44,307 bases of DNA from the NCBI GenBank assembly GCA_964452375.1, contig CAYVLJ010000001.1, positions 2,703 to 47,009 on the forward strand, in the 5' to 3' direction. Source of the DNA: an uncultured bacterium (GTDB taxonomy: Bacteria > Fidelibacterota > Fidelibacteria > Fidelibacterales > Fidelibacteraceae). The position numbers were made by a program, and so were the translations under genes. This document shows, piece after piece, positions 2,781-40,996 of this stretch; positions within the stretch are counted from its first letter, which is position 1; the number at the start of each line of letters is the position of its first letter. The notes under the pieces were generated by a model, which did no database searches, was not told the DNA's origin, and worked only from the letters and a program-made list of their open reading frames with translations.

Positions 2781-4118
2781 ATGAAACGCGTTGCTGTGAT
2801 TTTCATATGTGTGTTTTCTCTGTATCTCATTGCTGAAGAGATCCCTTCCGGAGAACATGCGATGGGGTCAAGAAAGTATTCGGACTATGAAAAACCCGAA
2901 AGCTGTAAAAGTTGTCACACCCGGATCTACCAGCAGTGGTCGCAATCCATGATGTCCCAGGCCTATACCCACCATTGGGATGAGATCGAATACTGGGAAC
3001 TTGCCGTGCCGCATGGTGATAAAGATCCCACCTTCAAGGCTGCCGCAGACGGCTGCAACGGCTGTCATGCTCCGCTGGCCTTTTTGGCCGGTGACGTGCC
3101 GCCGCCGAAACCCGCTGAAAACTCCCGCGCGAATGAAAGTGTGAGCTGCGACCTCTGTCACACGATAACCGGGATCAGCGGCGATCCGGTGAATTTCAAT
3201 TGGATCTCCGAACCCGGACGCACCAAATATGGGGCAAAAGAAGGACTGGAATCTCCGCACCATATTACAAAATTCAATGATATCTATACCGTTGCCGATT
3301 ATTGCGGGTCTTGTCATAACGAGCAAAATCCCTTCGGACTATGGGTTAAGTCCACTCAGATCGAATGGGAAGAAGGACCCTACGCTGAACAAGGTGTCCC
3401 CTGCTTTGTGTGCCATATGCCGAAAGCTCCCGGACGAAGCGCGCCCATGGCGGAAGAAAGTATGGTCGCTCAGCATATTTTTCTCGGCGCTCATAACGAA
3501 GCGAAACTGAAAAGCGCCATCGAGGTATCCATACACCCGGACGAACGGGAGATCCCATATGACGGAGCGGTTGTTTTTCAGGTCGAACTTTTCAATGCCA
3601 AGGCCGGACACAAGATCCCGACCGGTTCGGTCGAGGACCGCATTCTCTGGCTGGATGTCCGCGCCGTTGATGCCGAAGGCAAAGAATATCATCTGCCTGT
3701 AGACCTGAAAGGATTTGAAGGCGAGGAATATACGGTTGCCTCTGATGAACTTGCATACAGCGACATGGGATTTCCATTGGGGATCGAGGATTTTGAAGGC
3801 GTACAGAGAGACGGAGTTCCTGTTGGAAACCGCATTTTCCGCATGCCCTATTTCGACGAGAAAGGGATCATGACTATTCAACAATGGAATACACGCTCAT
3901 TCGGTGTTGATTATCGTGTTGGACCGCGGGAAACAAAACTGGAACATTATACCTGGTATATGCCGGATGATATCGCATTCGGCGATGTGGTCATCACGGC
4001 ACGTTTGTATTACCAAAAACTGGTTAAGCCCGTTGCGGATTTTCTGAATGTCCCGGCGGATGAAAGTGAAATGATATTAATGAATGAAGCCTCAACAACA
4101 ATAGAGGTTTATGATTAA
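2781..4118 (+). CDS. secreted pentaheme c-type cytochrome with a heme-free C-terminal domain
   Basis: Signal peptide. Five CxxCH motifs (CKSCH, CNGCH, CDLCH, CGSCH, CFVCH), all within residues about 42-212. Residues about 213-445 lack Cys. RBS AGGAG precedes the start. Confidence 0.85.
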   Translation: MKRVAVIFICVFSLYLIAEEIPSGEHAMGSRKYSDYEKPESCKSCHTRIYQQWSQSMMSQAYTHHWDEIEYWELAVPHGDKDPTFKAAADGCNGCHAPLAFLAGDVPPPKPAENSRANESVSCDLCHTITGISGDPVNFNWISEPGRTKYGAKEGLESPHHITKFNDIYTVADYCGSCHNEQNPFGLWVKSTQIEWEEGPYAEQGVPCFVCHMPKAPGRSAPMAEESMVAQHIFLGAHNEAKLKSAIEVSIHPDEREIPYDGAVVFQVELFNAKAGHKIPTGSVEDRILWLDVRAVDAEGKEYHLPVDLKGFEGEEYTVASDELAYSDMGFPLGIEDFEGVQRDGVPVGNRIFRMPYFDEKGIMTIQQWNTRSFGVDYRVGPRETKLEHYTWYMPDDIAFGDVVITARLYYQKLVKPVADFLNVPADESEMILMNEASTTIEVYD

Positions 4119-4128
4119 GGAGGCCGGT

Positions 4129-5313
4129 ATGAAAAAGATGAAACTGTTTTTACTTATTGTTTTGATCATCATGTTGTCGGTACAAAGCGCGATGGCGATA
4201 CCTGCGTTCGCCCGGCGATATAAATATTCATGTACTACTTGCCATGATCCCTTTCCACGTTTAAAGGATTATGGAGATGAATTTGCAGGTAACGGTTTTA
4301 TTGAACCGGATGAAGAGCGCGAGCGGGATTACGTTACGGCGGGTGACGACAAGCTTTGGCTGAATCGTGATTTTCCTTTTGCCGTTAGGTTTGATGTATA
4401 CGGACTGGCGGAAACCGGCGGTGACGTCAAGCTCGATCTTCAAACGCCTTACGGTGTTAAGCTTTTAACCGGTGGCACGCTTTACAAGAACATCGGTTAT
4501 TACATGTATTTTTATCTCTTCGAACGCGGTGAAGTAGCCGGGCTGGAAGATGCTTATATCCATTTCGATAATGTATTCAAAAGCAACCTGGATATTCTTG
4601 TTGGCCAATTCCAAACCTGCGACCCCCTTATGAAACGCGAGCTTCGCTTGACCTATGAAGATTATCATGCCTACAAGGTCAAGATCGGCGATTCGAATAT
4701 TAATCTCGCTTATGACCGGGGACTGGCTTTTGCTTACGGCATCGATAAGACCGGCACGGATATCATCGCGACGGTAACCACCGGAAACGGTATTCCGGAA
4801 GCCGGTGTCGATAAACGCTTTGACGCGGATCCCTATAAGAACTTTATGATCAGGGTAGCCCAGGGAATCGGCGAGCATATCAGTATCGGCGGGTTTTATT
4901 ATCGCGGCAAGGAGGATAAGGTCATCGACGAGGTGCTGACACCGGGATTGTCCAATACGGTCACCTATTTTGGACCGGACATTGTTCTGAGTCTCGGAAA
5001 ATTCGTTCTGACCGGACAATATCTGCGACGCCACGATTCCGATCCTCTCTTTACAGGAGGAACGTTCTCTCCCGTTACAACCCACGGTATTGTGGGGGAA
5101 CTTGTTTTTGCACCCAATTATGACCGGTCCAACACTTACTGGACATTATTATACAACCGTATAGATTCCGACCTGCCTACACATGATTACCACACCATCG
5201 CCTTTAGCGGCACATATATGATGGCGCGTAACTTGAGATTGATCGGAGAATATATCTACGACCTGGAAAATACGAACCACATGTTCATTCTGGGACTTAC
5301 CTCTGCATTCTGA
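4129..5313 (+). CDS. Cyc2-like fused monoheme cytochrome c / outer-membrane beta-barrel (porin-cytochrome)
   Basis: ATG at 4129 sits 5 nt after a strong AAGGAGG; the listed start at 4111 overlaps the upstream stop. Signal peptide ends in AMA. A single CTTCH lies 12 residues after the predicted cleavage site (IPAFARRYKYSCTTCH). The remaining about 355 aa are Gly/Tyr/Asp-rich alternating segments with one other Cys and a terminal Phe (GLTSAF). Confidence 0.6.
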   Translation: MKKMKLFLLIVLIIMLSVQSAMAIPAFARRYKYSCTTCHDPFPRLKDYGDEFAGNGFIEPDEERERDYVTAGDDKLWLNRDFPFAVRFDVYGLAETGGDVKLDLQTPYGVKLLTGGTLYKNIGYYMYFYLFERGEVAGLEDAYIHFDNVFKSNLDILVGQFQTCDPLMKRELRLTYEDYHAYKVKIGDSNINLAYDRGLAFAYGIDKTGTDIIATVTTGNGIPEAGVDKRFDADPYKNFMIRVAQGIGEHISIGGFYYRGKEDKVIDEVLTPGLSNTVTYFGPDIVLSLGKFVLTGQYLRRHDSDPLFTGGTFSPVTTHGIVGELVFAPNYDRSNTYWTLLYNRIDSDLPTHDYHTIAFSGTYMMARNLRLIGEYIYDLENTNHMFILGLTSAF

Positions 5314-5398: not shown

Positions 5399-8300
5399 AT
5401 GAACCGGAATATGTTTTTTAAGTTTTTTTTGATGATGCTTTTATATCCCCTGTTATTGTTATCTGCGACATGGACCCATACGGATGCGGCCACAGAACCG
5501 ATCTCCACCCGGCCTGTGATCTGCGCTGACCCATTGGGACATCTTCACATTGCATGGACGGCCAATGATCCCTACGGGGAAACACTTCATTATGCTACCA
5601 ACCAATCGGGAGATTGGACATATGCCAAACAAGTTGCCGGCGGCTCCAGCAACACGGCATATACACCATCCATAACTGTAGACCGATACGGCTTCCCCTA
5701 TATCGTTGCCAGGTTCTACAGCTATAACTACAATATTAGATACTTTACCAATGCATTTCAAACCTCGTCTTATTGGCTGGGAATGACGGCCATGGGCAAC
5801 GGGCATTATCACGAGTCTTCCATAGAGGTCGATAGTGAAAATAATGCGCATGTCTTCGCTCAGGAAGATACCTGGGGAAGCAATGTGTTTTATCAGAATC
5901 ATGATCTGGCGGATGTTGTGATCGAAGGGGGTACTTCCCAATTTTTTGCCACGGCTATCGATAAAAATGATGTACTGCACTTTTTGGGAAGTCATGAAAA
6001 TAATATCTGGTATACATACAATGACGGAACCGGCTGGAGCACACCGGATTCTATTGATCAACTTGAAATATCGACTTATCATCCGTCGCTCTTCTGCGAC
6101 GGGGATGGCAATCTGCATGCGGTTTTCGCCAGCACGAACGGTATCTATTATACAAATAATGTTTCGGGCGGCTGGAGTGTCCCGGAGCAGGTGGTTACTT
6201 CAGGCATATTTCCAAATGTTGCCGTTGATGAGAACGGCAAAGCACATATCGTTTATTATACGCAAGTCGAATACGGCGGATTGTTTTATGTAAATAACTT
6301 AAGCGGCAGTTGGTCTTCCGGCGAATTCATTGCCTCTATCAATACGGATGCCAGTCCTGCTACCGAAGATGTCGCTCACGTTGAAAGCAAGATCGCTCTT
6401 GATCTGAAGAACAGCACGGTTAATATTGTCTATATTGCTGACGGCAATACGGTCAAAGTAGCTCATACAGATGATTATGACCTCAGAGCAATACACCAAC
6501 ATGATACGACAAGTACCTGTGTCAGCCTGGGTACAATGCCTGAACTTGACACATTAAGCACATCCGTTAGCGGTTCAATAGAACTCATGAATTTTCGTAT
6601 CAGCGACGCAAGCGGGGATGGACTTCCCACCTCGATCGAGGAGATGGTCTTCCAGGCAGGCCCGGGAATGTCCGACGATCTTGTTTTTAATGATGTTTTT
6701 CAAAGTGTCTCGTTGTCGTGCTCAGACGGAAGCAGCTCTTCCTGTTCTGTTTATGGCAATAAAATTCTTGCCGGAACAAAAGACAATATTTGGAAAAATG
6801 TTCCTGATGGCGGCTCGCTTGATTTTACTTTAAGCGGAGTATTCAAAGACCCGCTCACAGATATGGACGGAAAAAGCCTTCAGGTCAAGATCAACGGATT
6901 GAACGAAATAATCGCAGATACCGCCGGTTCGGCATTTAGCAAAACCTGTGCTGATATCTGTTCCGACACGCTGTTGTTCAGAGTAGTCCCCGACCATTTT
7001 ATCTTTTTAAATCTCGGAGATGATTTTTATAACGAGAACCTGATCATTGGTTGGTGGATGCAGCTTCAGATCGTTGATGCCGCCGGGAATGTGGCTACCG
7101 GTGTGTCCGATGTCAACGTGACCCTGTCTGCCGTTGAGCTTGATGGCTTAACCCCAACGTCACTTCAGCTTCAATCTACCGAAACACTCACCAAAACATT
7201 TACCAACGGCGTGGTTAATTGGAACAATATCACCTATCCGGCTTCCGGACAGATCCGCATTCAGGCCAGTTGTGATCTCTTGACTGCAGCATCAGATACG
7301 ATAACCGTTATGCCTTTCAACCGAACGCTTTTGATCACTGCCGATGATACCATCTCGGATTTTCTGAACAGCGAAGGCATCGCACATGATTACTATCACG
7401 AAGGCAATTATCAATTTCCTACCGCAAGCAAGATCCCGGCTTATGATCATATACTAATGTGTCCGTCATTGAATTATGCCTGGTATGTCGATAGCACCAA
7501 GATCCGGTCCTTTCTGGAGAGCGGGACGGATACAAGCAGAAAATCCATGCTTGCGATGGGAGAAAGCGGATTAGGCAATGTTTATGATTCCCCCTTTGCA
7601 AAGGATTGTTTCGGTGCGACGCGCGAACAGATTTTTTCGCACCCCGGAAACGGTCTCACCGGAGTCGCGGATGATCCGGTAACAGACGGTATCCAACTTT
7701 CTGTTCCTGCCGGGAATTTGTATGAAATCATACCCTCACCCGGAGGCGCCACAGCAGTTCTGCATGAAGATCAGACCGATAAGACCGTGGGTACCCGATA
7801 TGACACACCTGCATTCAGAACGATCATGTTAACACCCGAATTTAGAAGTATATCGCCGGATATCGGACGTTCAAATCTTTTTTCTCAGATCATGGCCTGG
7901 TTTGACAGCTACGTTATTCCTGAATATCCTCCCGAATTGGCCGATCTTCCGGATATCAATATGACTGAGGACGTGATCAAACGTATCCCGCTGTCAGATT
8001 GGCATGCATACGTTTCAGATGAAGATACTCCGGCGGATTCTCTTCAATGGATAATTAGCGGATTGAATTTACTGAATTATTCGATCATACATGATACGCT
8101 GATTTTAACACCCTATGAGAATGTTTTCGGAATGGATACTATCTTCGTCACTGTCTCCGATGGTGAATACAATGATACCGATACGGTGCTGGTGACTGTT
8201 GGTCCCGTAAACGATGCACCCGAACCTTTTAACTTGCTTCTGCCAACGAATGGAACAGTCGCACCTGATACGTCATCCTTATTGCTGAGTTGGGAACCTG

Positions 8301-8812
8301 CCGTTGATATCGATGATGATACCCTGTATTATCAACTGCACTTTAGTGCGACAGATTTTGATTCTACGATCTATTTGATGAATACAGTCAATATGATTTT
8401 GGAAGACCTGACATTATTTCCCGCTGACACGACGATCTTGTGGTCGGTCAGCGTCAGTGATCCCGATGATAGTACGGTAACAGCACTTAATGCGCCTTTT
8501 TCATTTTGTGTCACGCATATTGAAGTTTCACTGGCTGAGCGCTTTCCAGAAGATTATGTCCTTCTGCCCTGTTATCCCAATCCCTTTAATCCCCAAACAA
8601 CAATAAGCTTTGGCTTACCGGAAAAAAGTTTTGTTAAAATCTCAGTGTTTGACCTAAACGGAAAACATATAAAAACACTTTTGAATAACATGATAGCAGC
8701 GGGCTTTCATAAAGTAAACTGGAATGCCGGAGATATGCCATCAGGAATATATATCATTGCGATCCATGCGGGGGAATTCGTTAATACGCAAAAAGTCGCC
8801 TTGTTGAAATGA
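5399..8812 (+). CDS. large T9SS-secreted surface protein (N-terminal ~7-blade propeller-like repeats, cadherin-like and FN3-like modules, T9SS C-terminal domain)
   Basis: Signal peptide. About seven repeats of roughly 45 aa of the form D..G..H(I/V)(V/A)(Y/F)...Y..N.SG.WS. A VTVGPVNDAPE cadherin-like strand and a LSWEPAVD FN3-like segment. C-terminus YPNPFNPQTTISF...PSGIYIIAIHAG...KVALLK is typical of a T9SS sorting domain. Confidence 0.8.
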   Translation: MNRNMFFKFFLMMLLYPLLLLSATWTHTDAATEPISTRPVICADPLGHLHIAWTANDPYGETLHYATNQSGDWTYAKQVAGGSSNTAYTPSITVDRYGFPYIVARFYSYNYNIRYFTNAFQTSSYWLGMTAMGNGHYHESSIEVDSENNAHVFAQEDTWGSNVFYQNHDLADVVIEGGTSQFFATAIDKNDVLHFLGSHENNIWYTYNDGTGWSTPDSIDQLEISTYHPSLFCDGDGNLHAVFASTNGIYYTNNVSGGWSVPEQVVTSGIFPNVAVDENGKAHIVYYTQVEYGGLFYVNNLSGSWSSGEFIASINTDASPATEDVAHVESKIALDLKNSTVNIVYIADGNTVKVAHTDDYDLRAIHQHDTTSTCVSLGTMPELDTLSTSVSGSIELMNFRISDASGDGLPTSIEEMVFQAGPGMSDDLVFNDVFQSVSLSCSDGSSSSCSVYGNKILAGTKDNIWKNVPDGGSLDFTLSGVFKDPLTDMDGKSLQVKINGLNEIIADTAGSAFSKTCADICSDTLLFRVVPDHFIFLNLGDDFYNENLIIGWWMQLQIVDAAGNVATGVSDVNVTLSAVELDGLTPTSLQLQSTETLTKTFTNGVVNWNNITYPASGQIRIQASCDLLTAASDTITVMPFNRTLLITADDTISDFLNSEGIAHDYYHEGNYQFPTASKIPAYDHILMCPSLNYAWYVDSTKIRSFLESGTDTSRKSMLAMGESGLGNVYDSPFAKDCFGATREQIFSHPGNGLTGVADDPVTDGIQLSVPAGNLYEIIPSPGGATAVLHEDQTDKTVGTRYDTPAFRTIMLTPEFRSISPDIGRSNLFSQIMAWFDSYVIPEYPPELADLPDINMTEDVIKRIPLSDWHAYVSDEDTPADSLQWIISGLNLLNYSIIHDTLILTPYENVFGMDTIFVTVSDGEYNDTDTVLVTVGPVNDAPEPFNLLLPTNGTVAPDTSSLLLSWEPAVDIDDDTLYYQLHFSATDFDSTIYLMNTVNMILEDLTLFPADTTILWSVSVSDPDDSTVTALNAPFSFCVTHIEVSLAERFPEDYVLLPCYPNPFNPQTTISFGLPEKSFVKISVFDLNGKHIKTLLNNMIAAGFHKVNWNAGDMPSGIYIIAIHAGEFVNTQKVALLK

Positions 8813-8925: not shown

Positions 8926-10206
8926 TTACTTTTTCTTTTTATCTTTGATCTTAACTTCAAGAATCTCATCCCACCTCGTTGTATATGATCTTGAGCGCAT
9001 ATTCTGTTTCAAGGCATGTTTGTCTTTCAAGCCTTGATCTGCGATCTTAAGAGTGTTTCGTCCGAATTTATCATTGACCAGGTCCAGCGCTTCAACCAGG
9101 CGATTGTCTTTGTCATTTAAAGTATTGTCCGTAAAAAGATCTTCCTGCAAAGCCTCCGCCTGCTGAAAATCCATCAAGATCACGCCGGCTTTTTTATAAT
9201 CGTAACCGGGTTTATATATCTTTTTTAACGCTTCTTTGGCTTGTTTTATCAGCACGATCGAGTTCTGCGTTGCCGGGAATTTTATAACGATGTTTCGCTT
9301 GTACTGCGGCAGATCCTCCCTGAAATAATTGGTATGAATGAATACCATCATCGAGGATGCGAAAGAATGCTGTTTCCTAAGTTTGACCGCACAGGTCGCG
9401 CAATGAGTGGCAACTGCCTGTTCCAGGTAATCATAATCCCGGATCATTTCTCCGAACGATCGTGCGGTGCAAATGGCTTTTTTGGGTTTTGTTGTCGATT
9501 CAAAGATCACGGAAGGTTCACCCTCGAGTTCTTTCTTGATCCTTAGTCCGACAACCGTCAATTCTCGAAGCACCAGATCGTCATTCAGGCGGATCAACTC
9601 ACCCGCGGTTTCAACACCCATCATGGCCAGTTTTTGTGTGGTCCTTCGTCCTATGCCCCAGACCTTCCCGACAGGGAATTCATTAAGAACCTTCTTGATT
9701 TGTCTTTGCTCTGAAAGCGCCATGCATCCTTTTAGAGCCGGATCTTTTTTTGCCAAATGAGTCGCGATCTTTGCCAGGGTCTTGGTTGGAGCAATACCGA
9801 TGCTGACGGGAATACCGGTGTACTTACCCACTAGATCTTTGAGATGCCGTGCTATCTTCAACATGGATATATCGTTGCCCTCTTCCAGTTCAAGAAAAGC
9901 TTCGTCGATGGAATATATCTCGATATCTTTTGAATACTCGCTCAAGATATTCATGACACGCCGGCTCATGTCGCCGTATAATGCAAAATTAGTGGAAAAG
10001 ACTTTCACGCCTTCTGCTTCGACCAATTGTTTATACTTGAAAGCAGGAGCACCCATGGGAATGCCGAGGGCTTTAGCCTCATTGGAACGTGCAATGACGC
10101 AACCGTCATTATTTGATAAAACAACAACGGGCTTCCCGTTCAGGTCGGGAGAAAATACTCGTTCACATGAGGCATAGAAGTTGTTGCAGTCGACAAGCGC
10201 GATCAT
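8926..10206 (-). CDS. umuC: Y-family translesion DNA polymerase V catalytic subunit UmuC
   Basis: N-terminus [18 protein letters not shown] and the overall Y-family layout. A 4-nt overlap with the upstream umuD. Confidence 0.9.
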
Positions 10207-10655
10207 TTTTTCATCTTCTTGATCACATAAGTAACAATGCCCCAGATAATGAAGTCATTATCTTCCCCAACTGGAATAGGGGCATAATCCTCATTTTCCG
10301 GCAGCAAATAGCAGGTGTTTTTTTCCACATGTACGCGTTTGACGGTAAAATCTCCGTCGATATAACATACCGCAATGGCATCGTTCTTTGGGTCCAGAGA
10401 ACGGTCGATCACTAAAACATCCCCATCGTGGATATCGATATTCTGCATCGAGTTCCCTTTAACGCGACCATAGAATGTGGCATTGGGATTTTTGATCAAT
10501 TCTTTGTTAAGATCCAGACTCATGTCTATGTAATCGTCAGCCGGAGAAGGGAATCCGGCTGAAATATTCTCAGCATACGGCAGTTCCATTTCGGAACCGC
10601 TGTCTGCGGTGTAAAAATCAATCTTATTGTGTTTTTTAATTCGCGAAAGTTTCAT
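10203..10655 (-). CDS. umuD: UmuD-like S24 self-cleaving peptidase (LexA/UmuD family)
   Basis: Ala-Gly cleavage site (NISAGFPSP), a Ser (GNSM) and Lys (TVKRV) catalytic dyad. Size is 150 aa with no N-terminal HTH domain. Translationally coupled to umuC. Confidence 0.85.
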
Positions 10656-12031: not shown

Positions 12032-12937
12032 TTACTTCTTCCCTTTCTGTATATCCATTATTCTTTCCAGTTTTTTTGATTCCGCTTCCAGCCATTTTTT
12101 GAATGAATCCACATCCCCCTTGTTGCGAATTTCGGCCAATACCTGCATTCCGGGCGTTTCAAAATTCTCGTCAATTCGCAATTTAACACCCTTGGATAAA
12201 GAAATATTATTCAAATGATCACTCATTTGTTTTCTAAAATTCGCGATCGTCGGGTATCTCATTTCATACAGCGATCGGCGTATTTCCTGAAGCTTTTGTG
12301 ATGATGACATTTCTTCATTTTCTGGCGTTTGTTGCAGTGAAGAGTTTTTCCATACATCGCCGACTGAGATCTTTTTTATTATACTGATATCTTGTAAAAG
12401 CGTTGCAATGGATTCCAACAGGTTAATTCCCGGATTCATTTCAAGCAGGGGATCTAAAAGCTTCCGGATGTCGGGGTTCGAAAAACGCAGGATGCGTTTT
12501 AAAGGAACGTTTTTAGAAATTAAATAGTATTTCCAATTCTTTTCATAATAGTTCAGTATTTCAATGTTGTCCCACTGATGTTTCCCGATCCCCATTTTTT
12601 TTGACCATACTTCTTTATTATGATCGGGGGCATATTTTTCAAGCAGACGCATGAATTTCGCAAGGTCGAAGTGGTGATGCTGCTGACTTAGCTTCAGCAT
12701 ATCAGATAATACGGATTCATATGTGCTGTCTTCCGAATAAACCAAAGCATGAATAACACCCGATCCTTTTTTTATTTTTTTATTCAACAATACGGGAATA
12801 TAGCGTTTTCCGTTTTTCCAGAATACCGGTAATTCATTGGGCTTATCCGTTTCAATATCATGATAGCCGTCATGGTAATCAAAGCGCTTATCGTTAAAAT
12901 CAATGCTGTCTGAGTCTATGGTTTTGTACTCTCGCAT
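12032..12937 (-). CDS. hypothetical protein (orphan; weak ParB/Srx-like N-terminal opening)
   Basis: A long ORF tightly packed with the downstream EamA gene (1-nt gap), highly charged and lacking TM segments. The opening YKTIDSDSIDFNDKRF loosely resembles ParB-N-type domains. No confident family assignment. Confidence 0.6.
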   Translation of the reverse strand: MREYKTIDSDSIDFNDKRFDYHDGYHDIETDKPNELPVFWKNGKRYIPVLLNKKIKKGSGVIHALVYSEDSTYESVLSDMLKLSQQHHHFDLAKFMRLLEKYAPDHNKEVWSKKMGIGKHQWDNIEILNYYEKNWKYYLISKNVPLKRILRFSNPDIRKLLDPLLEMNPGINLLESIATLLQDISIIKKISVGDVWKNSSLQQTPENEEMSSSQKLQEIRRSLYEMRYPTIANFRKQMSDHLNNISLSKGVKLRIDENFETPGMQVLAEIRNKGDVDSFKKWLEAESKKLERIMDIQKGKK

Positions 12938-13140
12938 ATCAACGAAATACTACACAAAATTTTTATTTTTAAAAAGTAAATTATCGCTTAAAGATCAAGA
13001 CCTTATATCATTCCAAACTGAACTCTTTACACTTTTGTCATGATCTTCGGATTATCATTGAATTTCAACAAGCTCGAAAATCAAAAAAATATTGTCTTTT
13101 TATAAAATTGACTGTAAGTTGGTATTGATCTTTGAATTAA

Positions 13141-13310
13141 ACTTGCGGTCAGTATTTTTTTGAATCAACAGTAAAAAATTGGGAGCCCAAGCTCATACCG
13201 GCGGAAATCAGGCCTTTCCTACTACGCCAAGGCTTCGTAGGATCAAGGAAGATTGAACCCGGCGGCAGGCACCCACCGTGTAAAACGGGTTCATTAAATA
13301 AACCGCAAGT
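13141..13310. other. 170-nt GC-rich element closed by imperfect inverted-repeat arms (candidate structured sRNA or MITE-like element)
   Basis: ACTTGCGGT (13141-13149) is the exact reverse complement of ACCGCAAGT (13302-13310). The helix can be extended by TATTT/AAATA and TGAATC/GGTTCA. Internal hairpins are GAGC-CCAA-GCTC (13183-13194) and GGAAA-TCAGGCC-TTTCC (13203-13219). A T-run follows at 13310-13316. Confidence 0.3.
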
Positions 13311-13316
13311 TTTTTT

Positions 13317-13349
13317 ATTGTCTTGAAAAACCCTGTTTTTCAAGACAAT
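13317..13349. repeat. perfect 15-bp inverted repeat (hairpin/palindromic site) with 3-nt centre
   Basis: ATTGTCTTGAAAAAC (13317-13331), CCT, then GTTTTTCAAGACAAT (13335-13349). It is preceded, not followed, by a T-run on the + strand, so it is not a canonical terminator in either orientation. Confidence 0.8.
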
Positions 13350-13512
13350 TATCCATCATAGCCCTTAGAAGCTTTAGCGAAGAGGGGGCAAAGGCAGATA
13401 GTCTATATTTTTACTTAATGATCTTTCCCGGCTTCTGCAAAATAGGATACACAGCAAATTTAACCAGGTATATTTCGTTTCATCCCTTCATTAAAACACC
13501 TCTTACAAGGTT

Positions 13513-13551
13513 TTACGATTTACGTCTTACGCCTTACGTCTAACGTCTTAC
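13513..13551. repeat. heptamer tandem repeat (TTACGTC)n, about 5.5 copies
   Basis: TTACGAT TTACGTC TTACGCC TTACGTC TAACGTC TTAC, read directly in the dnaA-upstream intergenic region. Confidence 0.85.
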
Positions 13552-13613
13552 TTTTATACAATATTTTTCTTGTTTTTTTCTTATGTTTGACTTAAGTTTT
13601 AATATACATGGCA

Positions 13614-13787
13614 TGTGTATAACCTGTGGATAATTGAAATATCAACGCTTAGAAAACTGTTTATTGTTTTTTCATTCCGAACAAATATTTCCTATAAGTG
13701 TTTGTTTTTTATGAAACAATAATACTACTCGGGGTGTGTAAAAACTGTTGGTATAATGTGGATAACTATGGTTTAGGGTGTGGATAA
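13614..13787. promoter_or_regulatory. DnaA-box cluster / candidate oriC and dnaA autoregulatory region
   Basis: Perfect TGTGGATAA (complement of TTATCCACA) at 13625-13633, 13757-13765 and 13779-13787. Degenerate boxes are TGTGTATAA at 13614-13622 and TGTGTAAAA at 13735-13743. All are in the same orientation. AT-rich tracts at about 13552-13612 and 13640-13725 are candidate unwinding regions. Confidence 0.7.
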
Positions 13788-15192
13788 CTTAAATTTTGAT
13801 GATCGTGTAACAGAAGGGATACAATGGGAAGCTTGTTTAAAGGATCTTGAGGGTTCTTTAAACCCCCAATCCTTCTCATCGTGGTTTTCACCATTGCAAT
13901 TTTGCTCAAATGAAAATGACGTGCTAACCTTGGCGGCGCCGAATAAATTTCATATTGAATTTATTGAATATAATTACTGGGATACCTTATCCCCGATCAT
14001 TGATAAGCATTTTCCTTCCAATAAAAAGGTCCAATTCATTATCAACACCCGGCTTCAGTCGGAAAGAGATATATCCGGAACGGTACAAGAAAACGTATCG
14101 CGGCAAAAGGAACAGGATACTATGTCCATTCCCAAGGCTGAGCCACCTAAACCCGATGTTTATTCGACTTTCAACAGTCGTTTTACTTTTGAAGAATTTG
14201 TGGAGGGGCCGCACAACCAATTTGCCAAGGTTGCGGCCTCTTCTGTTTCTGAAAATCCCGGACGCACTTATAACCCGCTTTTCATTTATGGCGGTACAGG
14301 GCTTGGAAAAACCCATTTGCTTCAGGCGATCGGCAACAGAGCATATGCAAGAAATCCCTACAGCCGGGTTATCTATGTTTCTATTGACACTTTCATGCGC
14401 GACTTTATTGACGCCATAAAGAACAATAAAAAAAATGACTTTAGTTTGTTGTATAAACAGGCAGATATCCTGCTCGTGGACGATGTTCAGTTCTTAAAGT
14501 CAAGAGAAGGGACACAGGAGCAGTTCTTTCACATATTTAACGATTTGCTCCAGCGAGATAAACAAATTGTTATTACTTCGGACAGGCCTCCGAAGGAGTT
14601 AGAGGGTTTGGAAGAACGCCTTGTGTCCCGTTTTCTTTCCGGTTTGATGGTCGATGTTCAGGCACCTGATCTGGAATCCCGGATCGCCATTCTTCAACAT
14701 AAGACTATCATGGAAAACCTGGATATACCCTATGAGGTCATTGAATTCATTGCTCAGAACGTTTCCTCCAATATCCGCGAATTGGAAGGAACTTTAACGA
14801 CCATGCTTGCCCGTTCTTCTCTTAATCATATTGATATTACGCTCGGCCTTGCGAAATCCGTTTTGATGGACATGAAAGGTGTTAAGCGAGATAGAATTAT
14901 TTCTATAGACACGGTGCAAAAGGTTGTAACGCGTTATTACAAAGTTTCTGAAAATGAGATCATCGGTAAAGGTCGTCGTAAAGAAGTTGCTTTGGCAAGA
15001 CAGGTCATGATGTACCTTTGCAGAGAGATGTGCAACGCTTCTTTAAAGACTATCGGACTGCGCCTTGGTGGGCGGGACCATACCACGGTTATGTATGGTG
15101 TTCGCGAGATCGGCAAGCGCACCCGGAATGATGAAGCATTTAAAAAAGAAGTTGCGCTCATTACGCAGCAGATCGAATTCGAAGGCGATTAA
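13780..15192 (+). CDS. dnaA: chromosomal replication initiator protein DnaA
   Basis: N-terminal WEACLKDLEGSLNPQSFSSWFSPL, Walker A GGTGLGKTHLL, Walker B LLVDDVQF, and a C-terminal DNA-binding domain (GGRDHTTVMYG). The GTG start lies inside a perfect DnaA box. Confidence 0.95.
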   Translation: MDNLNFDDRVTEGIQWEACLKDLEGSLNPQSFSSWFSPLQFCSNENDVLTLAAPNKFHIEFIEYNYWDTLSPIIDKHFPSNKKVQFIINTRLQSERDISGTVQENVSRQKEQDTMSIPKAEPPKPDVYSTFNSRFTFEEFVEGPHNQFAKVAASSVSENPGRTYNPLFIYGGTGLGKTHLLQAIGNRAYARNPYSRVIYVSIDTFMRDFIDAIKNNKKNDFSLLYKQADILLVDDVQFLKSREGTQEQFFHIFNDLLQRDKQIVITSDRPPKELEGLEERLVSRFLSGLMVDVQAPDLESRIAILQHKTIMENLDIPYEVIEFIAQNVSSNIRELEGTLTTMLARSSLNHIDITLGLAKSVLMDMKGVKRDRIISIDTVQKVVTRYYKVSENEIIGKGRRKEVALARQVMMYLCREMCNASLKTIGLRLGGRDHTTVMYGVREIGKRTRNDEAFKKEVALITQQIEFEGD

Positions 15193-15403: not shown

Positions 15404-15441
15404 ATACGTGCCTTATGTTTCTTGGTGTGGGTTTCTTCGAA

Positions 15442-15912
15442 CTAATTCTCTATGTCAAATTCTTTCAATATTGCTTCGGAATGTCCGTTGACTCGAACTC
15501 TCGGATAAATCTTTACGATCTTGCCTTTCTCATCGATCAAAAAAGTTTTTCGGATGACACCCATGAAGGTCTTGCCGTACATGTTTTTTTCTCCCCATGC
15601 ACCATAGGCATCCATGACCTTTTTATCTTCATCGGAAAGAAGGATGAACGGCAACTCATATTTTTCAGCGAATTCCCTGTGCGATGCCGCATTATCCTTG
15701 GAAATACCGATGATCACAATATTGTTATCGGTATAAACCTTATAGTCGTCTCTAAAAGCGCAGGCTTCCTTAGTACATCCGGGCGTATCGTCTTTAGGGT
15801 AAAAATAAAGAACTCCTTTTTTACCCCGGAACTGTTCAAGAGAATAGCTCTTCCCATCCGCATCATTAAGCTTAAAGGAAGGGGCTATATCATTGATCTG
15901 TAATTTACTCAT
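15442..15912 (-). CDS. bcp: thiol peroxidase / peroxiredoxin Bcp
   Basis: FYPKDDTPGCTKEAC active-site motif, AhpC/TSA fold, length 156 aa. Confidence 0.9.
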   Translation of the reverse strand: MSKLQINDIAPSFKLNDADGKSYSLEQFRGKKGVLYFYPKDDTPGCTKEACAFRDDYKVYTDNNIVIIGISKDNAASHREFAEKYELPFILLSDEDKKVMDAYGAWGEKNMYGKTFMGVIRKTFLIDEKGKIVKIYPRVRVNGHSEAILKEFDIEN

Positions 15913-23333: not shown

Positions 23334-23744
23334 TTATGAGTTCCGCGAACTGTTCTTAAACCAGCTTTCGATATAATCCACCGTTTTAGTGGTTGGCGTT
23401 CCCGGCCCGAACAGTTCGGCCACTCCCATTTCTTTCAATTCTTTCATATCTTCTTCCGGTATGACCCCTCCACCGACCAGAAGAACATCGTTCATGTCAT
23501 TTTCTTTCAGTAATTCCAGGACTTTCGGAAATATCGTCATATGGGCGCCGGAAAGAATTGACAGCGAGATCACATCCGCATCTTCCTGAATAGCCGCATT
23601 TACGATCATTTCCGGCGTCTGGCGCAAACCGAGATAGATCACTTCCATTCCGGCATCTCTCAATGCGTTGGCGATCACCTTGGCCCCTCTGTCATGTCCG
23701 TCAAGTCCGGGTTTTGCTAAAACAACACGAATTTTCTTTTTCAT
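23334..23744 (-). CDS. stand-alone cobalamin (B12)-binding domain protein, methylmalonyl-CoA mutase C-terminal-domain type
   Basis: DxHxxG motif in [11 protein letters not shown]; SLSILSGAH and GGGVIP segments. Size 136 aa. Confidence 0.85.
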
Positions 23745-23763
23745 TTTTTCCTCATTTTATCAC

Positions 23764-24210
23764 TCATTTAAGTTGGCTGTCCAATACAAAAGTTACGGGG
23801 CCTTCGTTGATCAGCGACACATCCATCATGGCGCCGAATTCTCCGGTTTCCACCAGAATACCCTGAGCTCCCAGAACATTGCAAAAATAATCGTAGAGCC
23901 GCTCTCCTTCACCGGGTTCAGCCGCTTTGACAAAACTCGGCCGGCGTCCTTTTCTCCAATCGCCGCACAGGGTGAACTGTGAGATAACCAATGCCGATCC
24001 CTGAACGTCTTTCAAAGAAATATTCATTTTATCGTCGGCATCGGGAAATATTCTCAGTCCGGTGATCTTTTCTGCAAGGAAATCGGCATCTTGTTCCGTA
24101 TCGCCTTTTGCCACACCAAGAAGAATGACCAGACCCTGGTCAATACAACCCTTGGTTTGTCTGTCTATGGTTACTTCCGCTCTGGCGACTCTTTGTATAA
24201 CAGCTATCAT
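23764..24210 (-). CDS. dtd: D-aminoacyl-tRNA deacylase
   Basis: MIAVIQRV... N-terminus and the SQFTL..D motif are typical of Dtd. ATG at 24210 is preferred over the TTG-initiated extension at 24255. Confidence 0.9.
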   Translation of the reverse strand: MIAVIQRVARAEVTIDRQTKGCIDQGLVILLGVAKGDTEQDADFLAEKITGLRIFPDADDKMNISLKDVQGSALVISQFTLCGDWRKGRRPSFVKAAEPGEGERLYDYFCNVLGAQGILVETGEFGAMMDVSLINEGPVTFVLDSQLK

Positions 24211-24291
24211 ATTCCTGTCACTTTTAATCAAGTAATTTAGGTTAAAAATACTCAAACTTCAATCTTTACAAGAAAAAACAGCCTTATTCTG

Positions 24292-25233
24292 TCATGATCG
24301 TTTTAATTGATAAAAAAGACCTCTTTCCATGTTGAGAGTTTCGATCTTTGCTTCGGATTCCAGTGTAGATAAATATTTATTGATTTCATTTTCATGCAAA
24401 CCCAGAATTCGACAAAGGTCTTCCAGGGTACAAGGACGTCGCGATATGGTTTCAAGAATGGCCTGTTCAACATCTGATCGAAAAGATTTTTTTTCACGCC
24501 GCTGGCTTACCGGGGCAATGATCTCGGTATTTGGAAAACCCAATATTTTTTTTATTTTTTCCAGATCCTGAATTTCCATAGCTTCCAAACCCCGTATCAC
24601 ACCGGGCCGGTCCAAAGTGTTCAGTTGTACGCTGTCCGGTTTGATCTGTTCAATGACAGATCTAAGAGCAAGTAAATTTTCATCATCGTCATTGTAATCT
24701 TTCAACAGGAACACTTCGAGCCATATTTTACCTTTGAATTCTTTACGAAATGCGGTCAGTCCCTCAATATGTTTTTCATGTTCCAAACTATGATGGGGAC
24801 GATTTATTCTGAGGAATGCATTCCGGGTGGCGGCGTCCATGGAGGGCAAAACAACGTCTGCCCCATACAAGGATCGCCGCACGTTCCTGTCGTAAAAAAG
24901 GGTTCCGTTCGTTAGGACGGCTATCTTGATATCCGGGTAATGCTTTTTTAAATAGGATATCACATCGGCAATACGTGAATTCAGAGTCGGCTCGCCGGAT
25001 CCTGAAAAAGTTACATAATCCGGTGCAGGATGATTCAGGATATAGTCATCCAACTCATTGATAACAGTGTCATATGGCACATATTCTTTGCGCTCTACCG
25101 TTAATACGGTCGTAGCGCCGCACTCGCAATAAATACAATTGAGGGTGCAAATTTTGTGGGGAACAAGATCCACACCGAGAGATATGCCCAATCGTCTTGA
25201 GGGAACGGGTCCAAATAAATAATGATAGGTCAT
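24292..25233 (-). CDS. radical SAM protein with C-terminal winged-helix-like domain
   Basis: N-terminal GPVPSRRLGISLGV followed by CTLNCIYCEC (CxxxCxxC). The C-terminal about 70 aa (ILETISRRPCTLEDLCRILGLHENEINKYLSTLE) is wHTH-like. Confidence 0.85.
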   Translation of the reverse strand: MTYHYLFGPVPSRRLGISLGVDLVPHKICTLNCIYCECGATTVLTVERKEYVPYDTVINELDDYILNHPAPDYVTFSGSGEPTLNSRIADVISYLKKHYPDIKIAVLTNGTLFYDRNVRRSLYGADVVLPSMDAATRNAFLRINRPHHSLEHEKHIEGLTAFRKEFKGKIWLEVFLLKDYNDDDENLLALRSVIEQIKPDSVQLNTLDRPGVIRGLEAMEIQDLEKIKKILGFPNTEIIAPVSQRREKKSFRSDVEQAILETISRRPCTLEDLCRILGLHENEINKYLSTLESEAKIETLNMERGLFYQLKRS

Positions 25234-25237
25234 GATC

Positions 25238-25684
25238 TTAATCGTATGATTTTCTTATTTCAAGAGTATCATTCAATGACTTCAGCATACTTTGCCAAAT
25301 ATCGCTTTTCCAGGTACCGAGATCTTTGTGCACGGTATAATATTTTTCCGGAATGGGGTGTGTGCCGATCACAACAGGAATATTAAAACGTGTTTCTATG
25401 TAGCGTTTAAAATGGTCGATCCTGGGGCATGGGGGATATCCGACAACCAATCCTGTTGCAAAATGAATGACTTCCGCTCCATTCTTGATCATTTCTTCAG
25501 GAGCATATTCCACATTACCCCCGGGACATCCTCCGCATGAAGTATATCCAATGATCTCAATATCCTCATCTTGGCTATAGCGCTTAAAAGCACCTTCGCG
25601 TTCTCTTATAGCACGAAAACACTTCCCACCGGCACAATGATGATAACGATGGCAAATGATAATACCAATTTTTGTCTTTTTCAT
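25238..25684 (-). CDS. CGGC-domain protein (Cys/His-rich, putative metal binding)
   Basis: CHRYHHCAGGKC and CGGCPG motifs. ATG at 25684 lies 1 nt after the upstream stop; the listed longer ORF overlaps the upstream gene. Confidence 0.75.
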   Translation of the reverse strand: MKKTKIGIIICHRYHHCAGGKCFRAIREREGAFKRYSQDEDIEIIGYTSCGGCPGGNVEYAPEEMIKNGAEVIHFATGLVVGYPPCPRIDHFKRYIETRFNIPVVIGTHPIPEKYYTVHKDLGTWKSDIWQSMLKSLNDTLEIRKSYD

Positions 25685-25685
25685 T

Positions 25686-26552
25686 TTATTGTCTCTGTTT
25701 TGTTTTTTCTGCTGAGAACATGACAATATCATCCTCGTTTACACCGATATCCCGGGCGATCACCGGACATTTCGCCTTCAACAGAAAAAAGACGGGCCGT
25801 TCCGTTTCCGATAAGCCTTCATAATTTCCTTGTCCCTTGCTGATGATCATATCGGCTTTGTTAAAACGCTCCAAGAATTCATCATTGCACAATTTGAGTA
25901 TCGTTGCCGGTGCAGGAGAACCGGATGAAACGATCTCCGCCACTTCGTCAAGCCCTGAATCTATGGCATCCTGATATGTGACATCATTGATAATGGGTTT
26001 TCCGCGGACAACATAGGTAACAGGTTTTTCAAGGGTTTCGATCAAGATCTTGTCAAAAACGGATTCGCCGGCATTGTCGCCGAGATACAAAATATGATCT
26101 GCCTTGGATAAGCGTTCCCTGAATAACTTAATATCGTTTAAAGCAAAATCCTGTTGCAATATTTTTTCAAGATCATTCTCTATATGAAAATGTTTATCCA
26201 TCCCCAAGTCCATCACATTCCCGGCGATCGCGATCCGGATCGCCATAAGCAAGGGATCCGCAGCATTTTTTAAGCGATCTTTTAAGAAAGGATAGAGACG
26301 TTTAGCCTCATTAATATGTTCATTTTTTTCTTTTTCAAAAGGGTCGTCGATACCGGTGATCCTGTGGATCTCATCATAGATGATCACCCCCATCTCCGGG
26401 GGCGTGTCACCGAGCGAAATATCCTTGATACGACATCCGATGCGGTCCATCAGTGCTTTGATCTCGGCATCGTCATCGCTTGCCATTCGTCCGGCCCTCA
26501 GGGCTTGTTTCACGAAACAGGGAATACAGTCGAGGTAGGTTTTCATTTTCAT
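25686..26552 (-). CDS. DUF89 / ARMT1-like damage-control phosphatase family protein
   Basis: The N-terminal LDCIPCFVKQAL and the overall length fit the DUF89 family. The start is ambiguous: TTG at 26570, ATG at 26552 or ATG at 26546. Confidence 0.7.
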   Translation of the reverse strand: MKMKTYLDCIPCFVKQALRAGRMASDDDAEIKALMDRIGCRIKDISLGDTPPEMGVIIYDEIHRITGIDDPFEKEKNEHINEAKRLYPFLKDRLKNAADPLLMAIRIAIAGNVMDLGMDKHFHIENDLEKILQQDFALNDIKLFRERLSKADHILYLGDNAGESVFDKILIETLEKPVTYVVRGKPIINDVTYQDAIDSGLDEVAEIVSSGSPAPATILKLCNDEFLERFNKADMIISKGQGNYEGLSETERPVFFLLKAKCPVIARDIGVNEDDIVMFSAEKTKQRQ

Positions 26553-26590
26553 ACAAGAGACAATAGACAAATTCCAAGATACGGTTAAAA

Positions 26591-40800: not shown

Positions 40801-40996
40801 AACGACCGTCGGCATTTTCTTTTACACGCAAACCGTCCGAGGTCGTAAGCCAGTTGTAATTTTCATCTCCATGCAGGTAAACTGTCAGGCTTTTTCCGTT
40901 TTCATATTCAACAACAACGGGTTCGGGACTCGCCGGTACGGCAATAAGTAAAGCTGATAAGGACAGTATTAAAAACAGTAAAAAGATCTTCTTCAT
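37820..40996 (-). CDS. T9SS-secreted M6-family (immune inhibitor A-like) zinc metalloprotease with PKD-like domain
   Basis: Signal peptide. HEFGHVCGLPDFYD zinc site. PKD-like WEFGDDG...THTY. T9SS C-terminal domain YPNPFNPTTAISY...GVYLYRLSAGNEVVTKKMVLMK. Confidence 0.85.
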   Translation of the reverse strand: MKKIFLLFLILSLSALLIAVPASPEPVVVEYENGKSLTVYLHGDENYNWLTTSDGLRVKENADGRFEYVQKDFKKAVADKKMIAHDPEYRDADERTFVSQLDKEVVIQPKDPKSLKMGAPIESPFEQTTFPTLGTRKFLLILVDFPDKAMTHRAEDFDSLMNAKDYTYNGAIGSVNEYYRTTSFGQFDPKFDVAGPFTLDSSYAYYGRDEGDNTDANIQQFVYDAVKAADPSVDFSQYDLDGDGYVDNIYFIYAGYGQASGAPSNTIWPHRWAYWASTLYADGKIVYDYSTSNELYGTSGTTRTSIGVICHEFGHVCGLPDFYDTDYSGSGGNCGGLGDWDEMAGGSWNYSGRRPPIFNAWSRMYLRWATPVELTGTRQVLVDSAYTSNDIYYFMSPTDDEFFMMENRQQVGFDAGIPGHGLLVFHIDMNSSGWYDNTLNTNPSRQAFDLEEADGLGNLSSTFINAGDAFPGTSGNSVFLDVGSPNALDWAGNPSRSALRNIQEIDGVITFSFGDMPVDSPGNFMAQPEGNDSIRVSWSLNNDADSVMLVNNESRMTGFPENLRKYEIGETVAGGEVIYKGIDTVFYHTGLPNGTTQYYAVYAFNDSTYTYSEKIGGHAKTASPPFYSEDFSDGLPRGWLIHDRLGHGAFSSNNPEGRTIASTTGSNGFMVMDSEHAGDILVDTELITRSFNFSLSRSVVLKFQHRLEVDDLTLARVLFTMNNGLTWFEIARWMSNTPNPAVEEFDLTAELAGFRDVKFKFYYQGINEKYWCIDDFEISAAQDTGLSAGLHTAQVSGSKPLTVEFVNTTVSYTDTADSYIWEFGDDGNFYYEKEPTHTYTMSGLFSVSLTALKNGNTSAIFKENYIEVINNAPAVILDKDTLDVAKNTPNTYNLKNIFMDPNGDPMTFSWFGNSEDLDINLQDDSLLVLTPGTDYMGTETITLVAKDNENDSTVHSVDVWVSETGIADARPTEFKLSQNYPNPFNPTTAISYQLSAFSRVELNIYDLNGHKIKTLISGMQDPGYYTVNFYAGDLPSGVYLYRLSAGNEVVTKKMVLMK

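Follow-up and report, generated by a model that had tools for sequence, protein, structure and literature searches.

What role does a Cyc2-type heme porin play in a bacterium of the FCB group? The question is raised by a gene at positions 4129–5313 of a 44,307-nucleotide stretch of DNA from an uncultured bacterium of the Fidelibacteraceae (assembly GCA_964452375.1, contig CAYVLJ010000001.1, positions 2,703 to 47,009 of the forward strand), referred to here as the window. An earlier note, made from the sequence alone, had called its product a Cyc2-like fused cytochrome-porin in a lineage bearing a type IX secretion system (T9SS). Our analysis supports the assignment to the Cyc2 family, specifically to its K/R-Y (‘Cluster 3-like’) motif type, through the signature around the heme motif, a predicted 16-strand fold and profile links to proteobacterial Cyc2-type proteins. 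The gene also appears to be the second of a two-gene operon, in which it follows a gene for a pentaheme cytochrome. The two products probably form a two-protein outer-membrane conduit, made of the heme-porin and a co-transcribed, Sec-exported pentaheme of the c552 type that is presumably periplasmic. The gene and its parts are as follows.

4129–5313, + strand: Cyc2-family fused monoheme cytochrome-porin, an intact open reading frame (ORF) of 394 amino acids plus stop
4117–4122, + strand: Shine-Dalgarno sequence AGGAGG of this gene, overlapping the last codons of the pentaheme gene
4129–4197, + strand: predicted signal peptide, residues 1–23 (...SAMA-I), read by eye from the sequence
4195–4263, + strand: Cyc2 signature A-I-P-A-F-A-R-R-Y-KYS-CTTCH-DPF-P-R-L, residues 23–45, with the heme-binding CxxCH at nucleotides 4231–4245
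4378–5310, + strand: 16-strand beta-barrel porin domain, residues 84–394, with a C-terminal Phe (AlphaFold2 model with DSSP; Foldseek)
4612–4713, + strand: long, highly conserved strand 5–6 loop, residues 162–195, QTCDPLMKRELRLTYEDY..., from the family alignment A1

An in-frame ATG at 4111 offers an alternative start, which would overlap the stop of the upstream pentaheme gene; 4129 is the better choice because AGGAGG lies 7 nt upstream of it. The position of this ribosome-binding site inside the end of the pentaheme gene is consistent with translational coupling. The N-terminus (MKKMKLFLLIVLIIMLSVQSAMA-IPAF) has the n-h-c layout of a signal peptide, with a K-rich n-region, a 15-residue hydrophobic core and A-M-A (A-x-A) before I24, and the same layout is found in homologs of the porin. 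The particulars given in the earlier note hold: the predicted cleavage after AMA fits this layout as judged by eye, CTTCH occupies residues 35–39 with C35 as the 12th residue of the mature protein, the roughly 355 residues that follow contain one further cysteine (C164), and the chain ends in Phe (...TSAF).

To describe the conservation of the heme segment we used two sets of homologs, a close set of 118 full-length proteins among the 120 best homologs of the target and a divergent set of 45 representatives of at least 360 amino acids, drawn from a search of 1.84 billion cluster representatives. Exactly one CxxCH is present in 118 of 118 close homologs and in 44 of 45 divergent representatives, so the motif, whose loss from orthologs the earlier note had named as an argument against its reading, is retained. 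Three residues separate the upstream motif from CxxCH and three separate CxxCH from the downstream PxL in every one of the 118 close homologs; this identical spacing, together with the conservation of the motif in both sets, marks CxxCH as more than a chance feature. The same spacing occurs in three of the four proteobacterial Cyc2-type proteins with which we compared the family. Residues P25, F27, R29, C35, C38, H39, P43, L45 and G49 are invariant in A1, and these same positions are 95–100% conserved in members that are 27–54% identical.

Keffer et al. (2021) defined Cyc2 by a signal peptide, a single CxxCH, the motif AxPxFAR[Q/K][T/Y] upstream of it, PxL downstream, a 16-strand OprO/OprP-like porin and a length of at least 365 amino acids, and termed the upstream motif unique to Cyc2 (PMC8406198). 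The target shares the signal peptide, the single N-terminal CxxCH, the A-x-P-x-F-A-R-x-Y pattern, PxL and the 3-residue spacings, as well as a 16-strand OprO/OprP-like barrel, a length above 365 amino acids and a C-terminal aromatic residue. Its upstream motif, A23-I-P-A-F-A-R-R-Y31, agrees at eight of nine positions, with a conservative R at [Q/K]; PxL appears as CTTCH-DPF-P-R-L, in which P43 and L45 are invariant; and its 394 amino acids exceed the length rule of FeGenie (at least 365). Among the Cyc2 fused cytochrome-porins, to which A. ferrooxidans Cyc2, M. ferrooxydans Cyc2PV-1 and Leptospirillum Cyt572 belong, the target is closest to ‘Cluster 3’ (McAllister 2020; Keffer 2021), and its K/R-Y motif is the Cluster 3 form. 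The target clade differs from Cyc2 in having mostly R at the [Q/K] position (113 of the 118 close homologs, distributed with the rest as RRY 98, RRH 12, RKY 5 and RRN 2), and a literal motif filter such as that of the 2021 reference tree would therefore discard it. ARKY or ARQY is the form in most divergent representatives and in members that share the pentaheme partner, such as P0244 (at locus L090). In Fig. S9 of PMC9769843 the motif appears as FARKY for Leptospirillum, Nitrospira and Tenderia; we used this figure at motif level only, as it is machine-read and has corrupted and duplicated strings.

The remainder of the chain is predicted to be a barrel. The earlier note had proposed a count of strands and had taken a non-barrel fold as an argument against itself; the AlphaFold2 model, built on a 45-sequence alignment (predicted local distance difference test, pLDDT, 69; predicted template modelling score, pTM, 0.70), has 16 DSSP strands between residues 84 and 393, with pLDDT mostly 75–91 in the C-terminal half. 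Foldseek searches of the PDB with this model returned 16-strand porins only, at E 4e-11 and below, among them OprP (2o4v, rank 11, TMq 0.58) and OprO (4rjx, rank 19, TMq 0.53), the two proteins named by Keffer et al. as structural homologs of Cyc2 (PMC8406198). By sequence, the target has no Pfam match even at E ≤ 1 and no NCBIfam match, and neither the protein nor the family profile retrieved anything meaningful from the PDB, so that no solved Cyc2 relative is detectable in this way. Weak matches to Porin_4, BBP2 and SlpA_C occur in 7–8 of 45 family members, and some divergent members (P0413, P0430, P0431, P0437 and P0445) have a precomputed match to PF07396; if, as we presume, this is the family of phosphate-selective porins O and P, Cyc2-type barrels and OprO/OprP would be linked directly by sequence. 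Ordinary phosphate or anion porins, which would have spoken for another identity, are not the best homologs of the target; these carry the heme motif.

The loop between strands 5 and 6 is highly conserved: Q162, D165, P166, K169, R170, E171, L172 and R173 are invariant in A1, and conservation of D165 and R173 is still at least 95% among the divergent members. AlphaFold2 confidence is below 50 at residues 164–172. By analogy, the loop may correspond in position to L3, the constriction loop that general porins have. Identity of the porin domain is at least 55% across phyla, which is unusually high for a porin domain, and the barrel of this clade is far more conserved than Cyc2 porin domains usually are.

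These data bear on whether the protein is an ordinary diffusion porin with a fortuitous or non-functional CxxCH. Such a porin would explain why no Pfam or NCBIfam cytochrome model matches the target, why the fold matches are plain porins and why a few family members have weak Porin_4 or BBP2 matches. It would not explain a CxxCH that is invariant with about 12 flanking residues down to 27% overall identity, flanks that fit the Cyc2-specific signature, or the linkage of the gene to a cytochrome gene and, in the target genome, to heme-attachment genes; we consider it very improbable. The target resembles OprP, OprO and the general 16-strand porins (OmpF/OmpU class) in strand number, fold and its long strand 5–6 loop, but differs from them in its heme motif and N-terminal extension and has no detectable sequence similarity to them. 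A heme-free OprO/OprP or general porin was rejected as an identity on the grounds of the missing porin Pfam match and the invariant heme motif.

To relate the family to Cyc2 by sequence we compared three profiles: that of the window protein’s family (A1), one of proteobacterial Cyc2-type proteins from Ralstonia, Caballeronia, Paraburkholderia and Methylocystis replicons (A2), and one of divergent family members (A4). Aligned with hhalign, A1 and A2 match at 97.9% probability (E 4.7e-13) over 59 N-terminal columns, where A2 is to be read as Cyc2-type by motif and context. A1 and A4 align over their full length (384 columns, 100% probability, E 1e-74), and A4 aligns with A2 over 100 columns reaching into the first strands of the barrel (99.1% probability, E 7.5e-19). 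A4 is a transitive bridge linking A1 to A2. The Cyc2-type genes of Methylocystis, Caballeronia and Paraburkholderia lie among small c-type cytochrome genes, in Caballeronia also with a gene for HiPIP, an iron–sulfur protein of high potential, and the stretch around the gene in the Ralstonia record carries no annotation. Three of the four proteobacterial proteins have no Pfam match and one has an insignificant match to DUF7430 (E 0.11); because the target gave no match in Pfam and NCBIfam scans either, we conclude that these collections hold no curated model for Cyc2. A scan of the genome collection with picked barrel motifs returned close FCB relatives only and reached no validated Cyc2, and the homolog search with the divergent profile returned no named iron oxidizer.

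The clade comprises 251 confirmed loci in a collection of species-representative genomes, and 145 representative clusters at 50% identity (E ≤ 1e-30). Cyc2-like genes in FCB-group bacteria are not new as such. He et al. (2019) found them in Ignavibacteriaceae and Bacteroidetes (PMC6344600), and a 2022 survey of the Southwest Indian Ridge found them in Calditrichota, KSB1, Krumholzibacteriota, Eisenbacteria and others, with about 75% of its homologs placed in Cluster III (PMC9769843). Two of our loci (L058 and L059) lie in metagenome-assembled genomes, Dive96_bin3.88 and Dive96_bin1.135, that Fig. S9 of the latter study names as carrying cyc2-like sequences; the figure was machine-read and does not confirm that the genes are the same.

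What sets this clade apart is its partner gene.

2781–4118, + strand: pentaheme c-type cytochrome of the c552 type, 445 amino acids with signal peptide, CxxCH at residues 42, 92, 123, 175 and 208

For gene order we examined the best 80 of the 251 related loci. A pentaheme ortholog lies directly upstream of the porin gene on the same strand in 79 of 80, the sole exception being cut off by a contig end, and the orthologs in these 79 loci are 62–100% identical. The loci span Marinimicrobia/Fidelibacterota, Krumholzibacteriota, Latescibacterota, KSB1, Calditrichota, Eisenbacteria and Zhuqueibacterota, so that the adjacency is kept across at least seven phylum-level lineages. Clustering of all ORFs in the 80 loci revealed no other gene conserved around the pair; the next commonest neighbours were a CcsA-like gene (19 loci) and a ResB-like gene (13 loci). 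The two genes are typically separated by 3–25 nt or overlap, with a median gap of about 11–16 nt across loci and a gap of 10 nt in the target genome. Mean identity across loci is 60% for the porin and 68% for the pentaheme. The pairing persists in distant members that score about 400–480 bits against the A1 profile (L090 and L092), such as P0244, which has the strict ARKY motif, and P0257. Judged from gene order, the porin and the pentaheme are a clade-specific two-gene module, a variant of which we found no description in the literature searched; most subscription journals lay outside that coverage, which makes this weak evidence of novelty. One metagenome-assembled genome, MFD09964.bin.2.223, holds two copies on different contigs (L049 and L055), so the module can be paralogous within a genome.

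The pairing also bears on the possibility that the porin is a stand-alone iron oxidase, as Cyc2 is in Mariprofundus and Acidithiobacillus, with the pentaheme only loosely related to it, for example as one of several interchangeable periplasmic carriers. All biochemically characterized members of the family are Fe(II) oxidases (PMC8406198), divergent relatives of the target occur without any adjacent cytochrome, and the proteobacterial Cyc2-type genes adjoin small c-type cytochromes and HiPIP, not multihemes. A loose relationship is, however, hard to reconcile with an adjacency that holds in 79 of 80 loci and in at least seven lineages of phylum level, all other neighbours being variable, with short or overlapping gene junctions, and with the unusual conservation of both proteins across phyla (the mean identities given above). 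We therefore consider a stand-alone oxidase quite unlikely. In being always preceded by a c552-type pentaheme gene the clade is unlike the four proteobacterial Cyc2-type loci, and it is unlike Cyc2 also in its hosts, which are FCB-group lineages.

What kind of protein is the partner? By sequence, its only significant relative in the PDB is the penta-heme c552 of Thermochromatium tepidum (5ze8; phmmer E 1.1e-8, profile E 1.2e-12), with matching stretches in the heme and C-terminal domains, and the same structure ranks first in the fold search (E 1.9e-12), about seven orders ahead of the next match (3.8e-5). Both proteins have five CxxCH, about 440 amino acids, an N-terminal heme domain and a C-terminal Ig-like beta-sandwich, although they are only about 20% identical. 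The beta-sandwich domain of the partner, about 200 residues, is confident in the AlphaFold2 model (residues 245–445). Five CxxCH are present in 72 of 75 pentaheme orthologs. The ortholog beside P0244 (L090, 2166–3485) has only four canonical CxxCH and two extra cysteines, and may have a variant heme motif or have lost a heme. Histidines H64, H65, H78, H161, H232, H238 and H277, all outside the CxxCH motifs, are invariant, enough in principle for bis-histidine ligation of all five hemes, the usual electron-transfer arrangement. The protein has a signal peptide, and because it shows no visible lipobox and no T9SS tail we place it by default as soluble in the periplasm.

The same pentaheme family contains Geobacter ExtKL (PMC11976967), and the wider family includes Geobacter ExtKL/MccSep and the sPHC of cable bacteria. 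ExtKL is the periplasmic selenoenzyme MccSep, a polysulfide reductase that requires a heme-ligating Cys (C239) and a Sec/Cys (U325), both strictly conserved in the MccSep family; how the substrate of the enzyme crosses the outer membrane is not known (bioRxiv 10.1101/2025.11.18.688581). The partner lacks this Cys/Sec active site: its mature chain has no non-heme Cys, as is the case for 57 of 72 orthologs, and its gene has no internal in-frame stop codon. It scores 48.7 bits against the NCBIfam ExtKL model NF040886, whose cutoff is 250. An identity as MccSep/ExtKL was rejected on both counts.

A broader version of this idea is that the pair is a channel and an enzyme. The pentaheme would be a catalytic periplasmic reductase or oxidase, comparable to MccSep/ExtKL for polysulfide or NrfA for nitrite, and the porin would import a small, possibly anionic substrate, its own heme serving a gating, sensing or auxiliary role. 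The membership of the partner in the family of c552 and ExtKL and its weak match to the ExtKL model fit such a pair, as does the resemblance of the barrel to the anion-specific porins OprP and OprO; in ExtKL, too, a substrate of the periplasmic enzyme has to cross the outer membrane by a route not yet described. In Geobacter, moreover, the extKL gene adjoins a porin-like gene, extI, and the names of several source records, such as Zod_Metabat, BS750m and SulCav, suggest sulfidic, anoxic sites. The sequence features of the two proteins point the other way. The MccSep residues Cys239 and Sec/Cys325 are absent and most orthologs have no cysteine outside the heme motifs, the ExtKL score is far below its cutoff, the invariant histidines suffice for five bis-histidine hemes of the electron-transfer type, and the absolute conservation of CxxCH in the porin argues that its heme is central and not auxiliary. 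This alternative we hold to be unlikely. We know of no study in which c552 or MccSep acts together with a porin that bears heme, a pairing that our literature searches did not cover.

These results have implications for how a conduit of porin and pentaheme might work. The porin would consist of a heme-binding peptide of about 57 residues, carrying one covalent c-type heme, fused to the 16-strand barrel. As the signal peptides, CxxCH motifs and neighbouring genes suggest, both proteins would be exported by Sec and receive their hemes from System II (CcsBA). The porin would then be inserted by the beta-barrel assembly machinery (BAM), with its N-terminal heme peptide at or in the periplasmic mouth of the barrel, a position proposed by analogy with Cyc2 and which the model does not resolve. 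A pore of 16 strands is too narrow to ensheathe a multiheme cytochrome, so that a soluble species must enter it. By analogy with Cyc2PV-1 of M. ferrooxydans, this species would be small and redox-active, with dissolved Fe(II) and chelated Fe(III) as the likeliest candidates, and would exchange an electron with the single heme. That heme would in turn exchange electrons with the pentaheme, wiring it to redox enzymes of the inner membrane, as the operon linkage suggests.

In its gene order the module resembles MtrAB/MtrCAB, MtoAB/PioAB and the Geobacter Pcc/Ext systems, in which the gene for an outer-membrane barrel adjoins that for a periplasmic multiheme in a presumed trans-outer-membrane conduit. 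The barrels of the Mtr, Mto and Pio systems, however, have 20–26 strands, are heme-free and sheathe a membrane-spanning, typically decaheme, multiheme wire; the 26-strand MtrB, for example, sheathes MtrA (PMC8406198). The target barrel has 16 strands and its own heme motif, and its partner has only five hemes. An Mtr-type architecture was excluded, as a 16-strand barrel cannot sheathe a multiheme cytochrome.

Does this conduit carry electrons inward or outward? The earlier note had held that the direction could not be read from sequence, and this remains so. Given a conduit, inward flow, with oxidation of Fe(II) or another soluble donor, has in our estimate somewhat less than an even chance, and is favoured because every biochemically characterized Cyc2 is an Fe(II) oxidase. 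Outward flow, in which these mostly heterotrophic lineages would reduce a soluble acceptor, is a substantial possibility but carries less weight, and what remains falls to other roles. It is considered because the hosts are described as putative heterotrophs with no known iron oxidation (PMC9769843), because the closest solved relative of the partner is described as a low-potential protein, and because Cyc2-like genes occur in Fe(III)-reducing taxa (PMC6344600). Tentatively, and with the likelihood below that of the opposite, the FCB-group ‘Cyc2’ clade might not be an iron oxidase at all but the outer half of a conduit that runs outward, from the periplasmic low-potential pentaheme to the pore heme and on to an acceptor dissolved outside the cell, for example chelated Fe(III), humic quinones or a sulfur species. 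If this were true, anaerobic heterotrophs would have in the module an inexpensive means of extracellular respiration, and cyc2 matches in these lineages would be misread as iron-oxidation potential in metagenome surveys.

Several observations weigh against a Cyc2-type conduit. Only the N-terminal 60–100 columns align by sequence with the proteobacterial Cyc2-type proteins, and these comparators are homologs by motif and context, none of them a biochemically validated Cyc2. The literal expression of Keffer et al. fails at one position in the target, with R for Q/K. No distal heme ligand is conserved across the wider family (members 27–54% identical); H145 and M168 were considered for this role and set aside, since they are invariant or nearly so among the close homologs and lose this conservation in the wider family, where charged barrel residues are widely kept and no second His or Met is. 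In the AlphaFold2 model the heme segment (residues 23–82) has pLDDT below 50, so neither the plug geometry nor a docking surface can be read from it. More divergent relatives, including a Gemmatimonadales protein, have no adjacent multiheme cytochrome, and the pentaheme partner is therefore not intrinsic to the fold. The identities of porin and pentaheme co-vary across loci (r = 0.92, n = 75), which speaks for a fixed pairing but would also follow from shared phylogeny alone. No respiratory gene that would indicate a direction is found anywhere in the window, the rest of which consists of housekeeping genes. Finally, heme attachment, outer-membrane location, contact between porin and pentaheme, substrate and direction are all inferred.

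The pairing of porin and pentaheme overturns nothing by itself, but it makes the question of Cyc2 homologs in bacteria that do not oxidize iron directly testable. Tools such as FeGenie use cyc2 as a marker of neutrophilic iron oxidation, and this use is widespread; the Southwest Indian Ridge survey assigns the Cyc2-like genes of Calditrichota, KSB1, Krumholzibacteriota, Eisenbacteria and Bacteroidota to putative iron oxidizers (PMC9769843). Those who developed the marker call the function of Cluster 3 ‘most uncertain’ and state that Cyc2 ‘may have additional functions’ (PMC8406198). The FCB-group clade may work differently from textbook Cyc2, and its invariant pentaheme operon is a concrete handle on the role of such homologs in non-iron-oxidizers. 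The pairing would likewise provide a functional context for c552-type pentahemes, which have so far had no assigned role.

Upstream of the module, the window contains the following features.

988–1860, + strand: ResB/CcsB-like System II cytochrome c maturation protein, 290 amino acids (Pfam PF05140 ResB, E 1.9e-13)
1704–2612, + strand: CcsA-like cytochrome c assembly protein (Pfam PF01578 Cytochrom_C_asm, E 1.7e-31)
2716–2744, + strand: sigma-70-like promoter match TTGCAA-17-TATATT, 9 of 12 consensus matches, in the 168-bp gap before the pentaheme gene

In the target genome the System II genes immediately precede the module, which is consistent with heme attachment to both of its proteins. The ResB-like ORF is short, at 290 amino acids against a Pfam model of 486 positions. 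The CcsA-like ORF is called from a GTG and overlaps it by 157 nt; the true start of the CcsA-like gene is probably later than this call. In the synteny count, a ResB-like gene occurs near the module in 13 of 80 loci and a CcsA-like gene in 23 of 80, the System II pair being found mainly in Marinimicrobia loci, which makes the ResB-like gene an accessory and not a universal part of the module. The promoter match is weak evidence, since a scan of the region for the sigma-70 consensus gave 25 matches where 18.3 are expected. An Rfam scan of the window gave no match, and thus no riboswitch or leader for the operon. Further upstream, an ORF at 13–483 and an OMP_b-brl protein (508–957) precede the ccs genes; the former is matched upstream of the module in only 2 of 80 loci.

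The description of the lineage as T9SS-bearing is borne out by three window proteins with a Por_Secre_tail domain, but it has no relevance to the porin–pentaheme system, with a T9SS neighbour syntenic in 1 of 80 loci.

5399–8812: large protein with a T9SS C-terminal sorting domain
35312–37639: large protein with a T9SS C-terminal sorting domain
37820–40996: large protein with a T9SS C-terminal sorting domain

A functional link between the module and the T9SS-sorted protein of 1137 amino acids just downstream was rejected, as the two are syntenic only in the near-identical locus L001. The three comprise a protein with Ig-like and beta-propeller-like repeats, another with BNR repeats and an M6-like peptidase that carries PKD domains; none of them is conserved beside the cytochrome module. 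Also just downstream, a translesion-polymerase pair, umuD-like (Peptidase_S24) and umuC-like (IMS family), occupies 8926–10655 on the − strand, and this pair and an EamA transporter gene are syntenic with the module in four Marinimicrobia loci.

Elsewhere in the window, the ORFs at 13–483 (156 amino acids), 12032–12937 (301 amino acids) and 15415–15903 (162 amino acids) have no Pfam match at E ≤ 0.001. The − strand has at 23334–26570 a run of genes whose products are a B12-binding domain protein, a D-Tyr-tRNA deacylase, a radical SAM protein, a protein with a CGGC domain and an ARMT1-like phosphatase; the B12, radical SAM and CGGC members of this run may belong together functionally. A gap at 12938–13779 precedes dnaA (13780–15192), and DnaA boxes cluster at the dnaA start: all three perfect copies of TTATCCACA in the 44-kb window, along with a one-mismatch box, fall within 175 bp (13614–13787). 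This cluster probably marks either the origin of the chromosome or the promoter region of dnaA.

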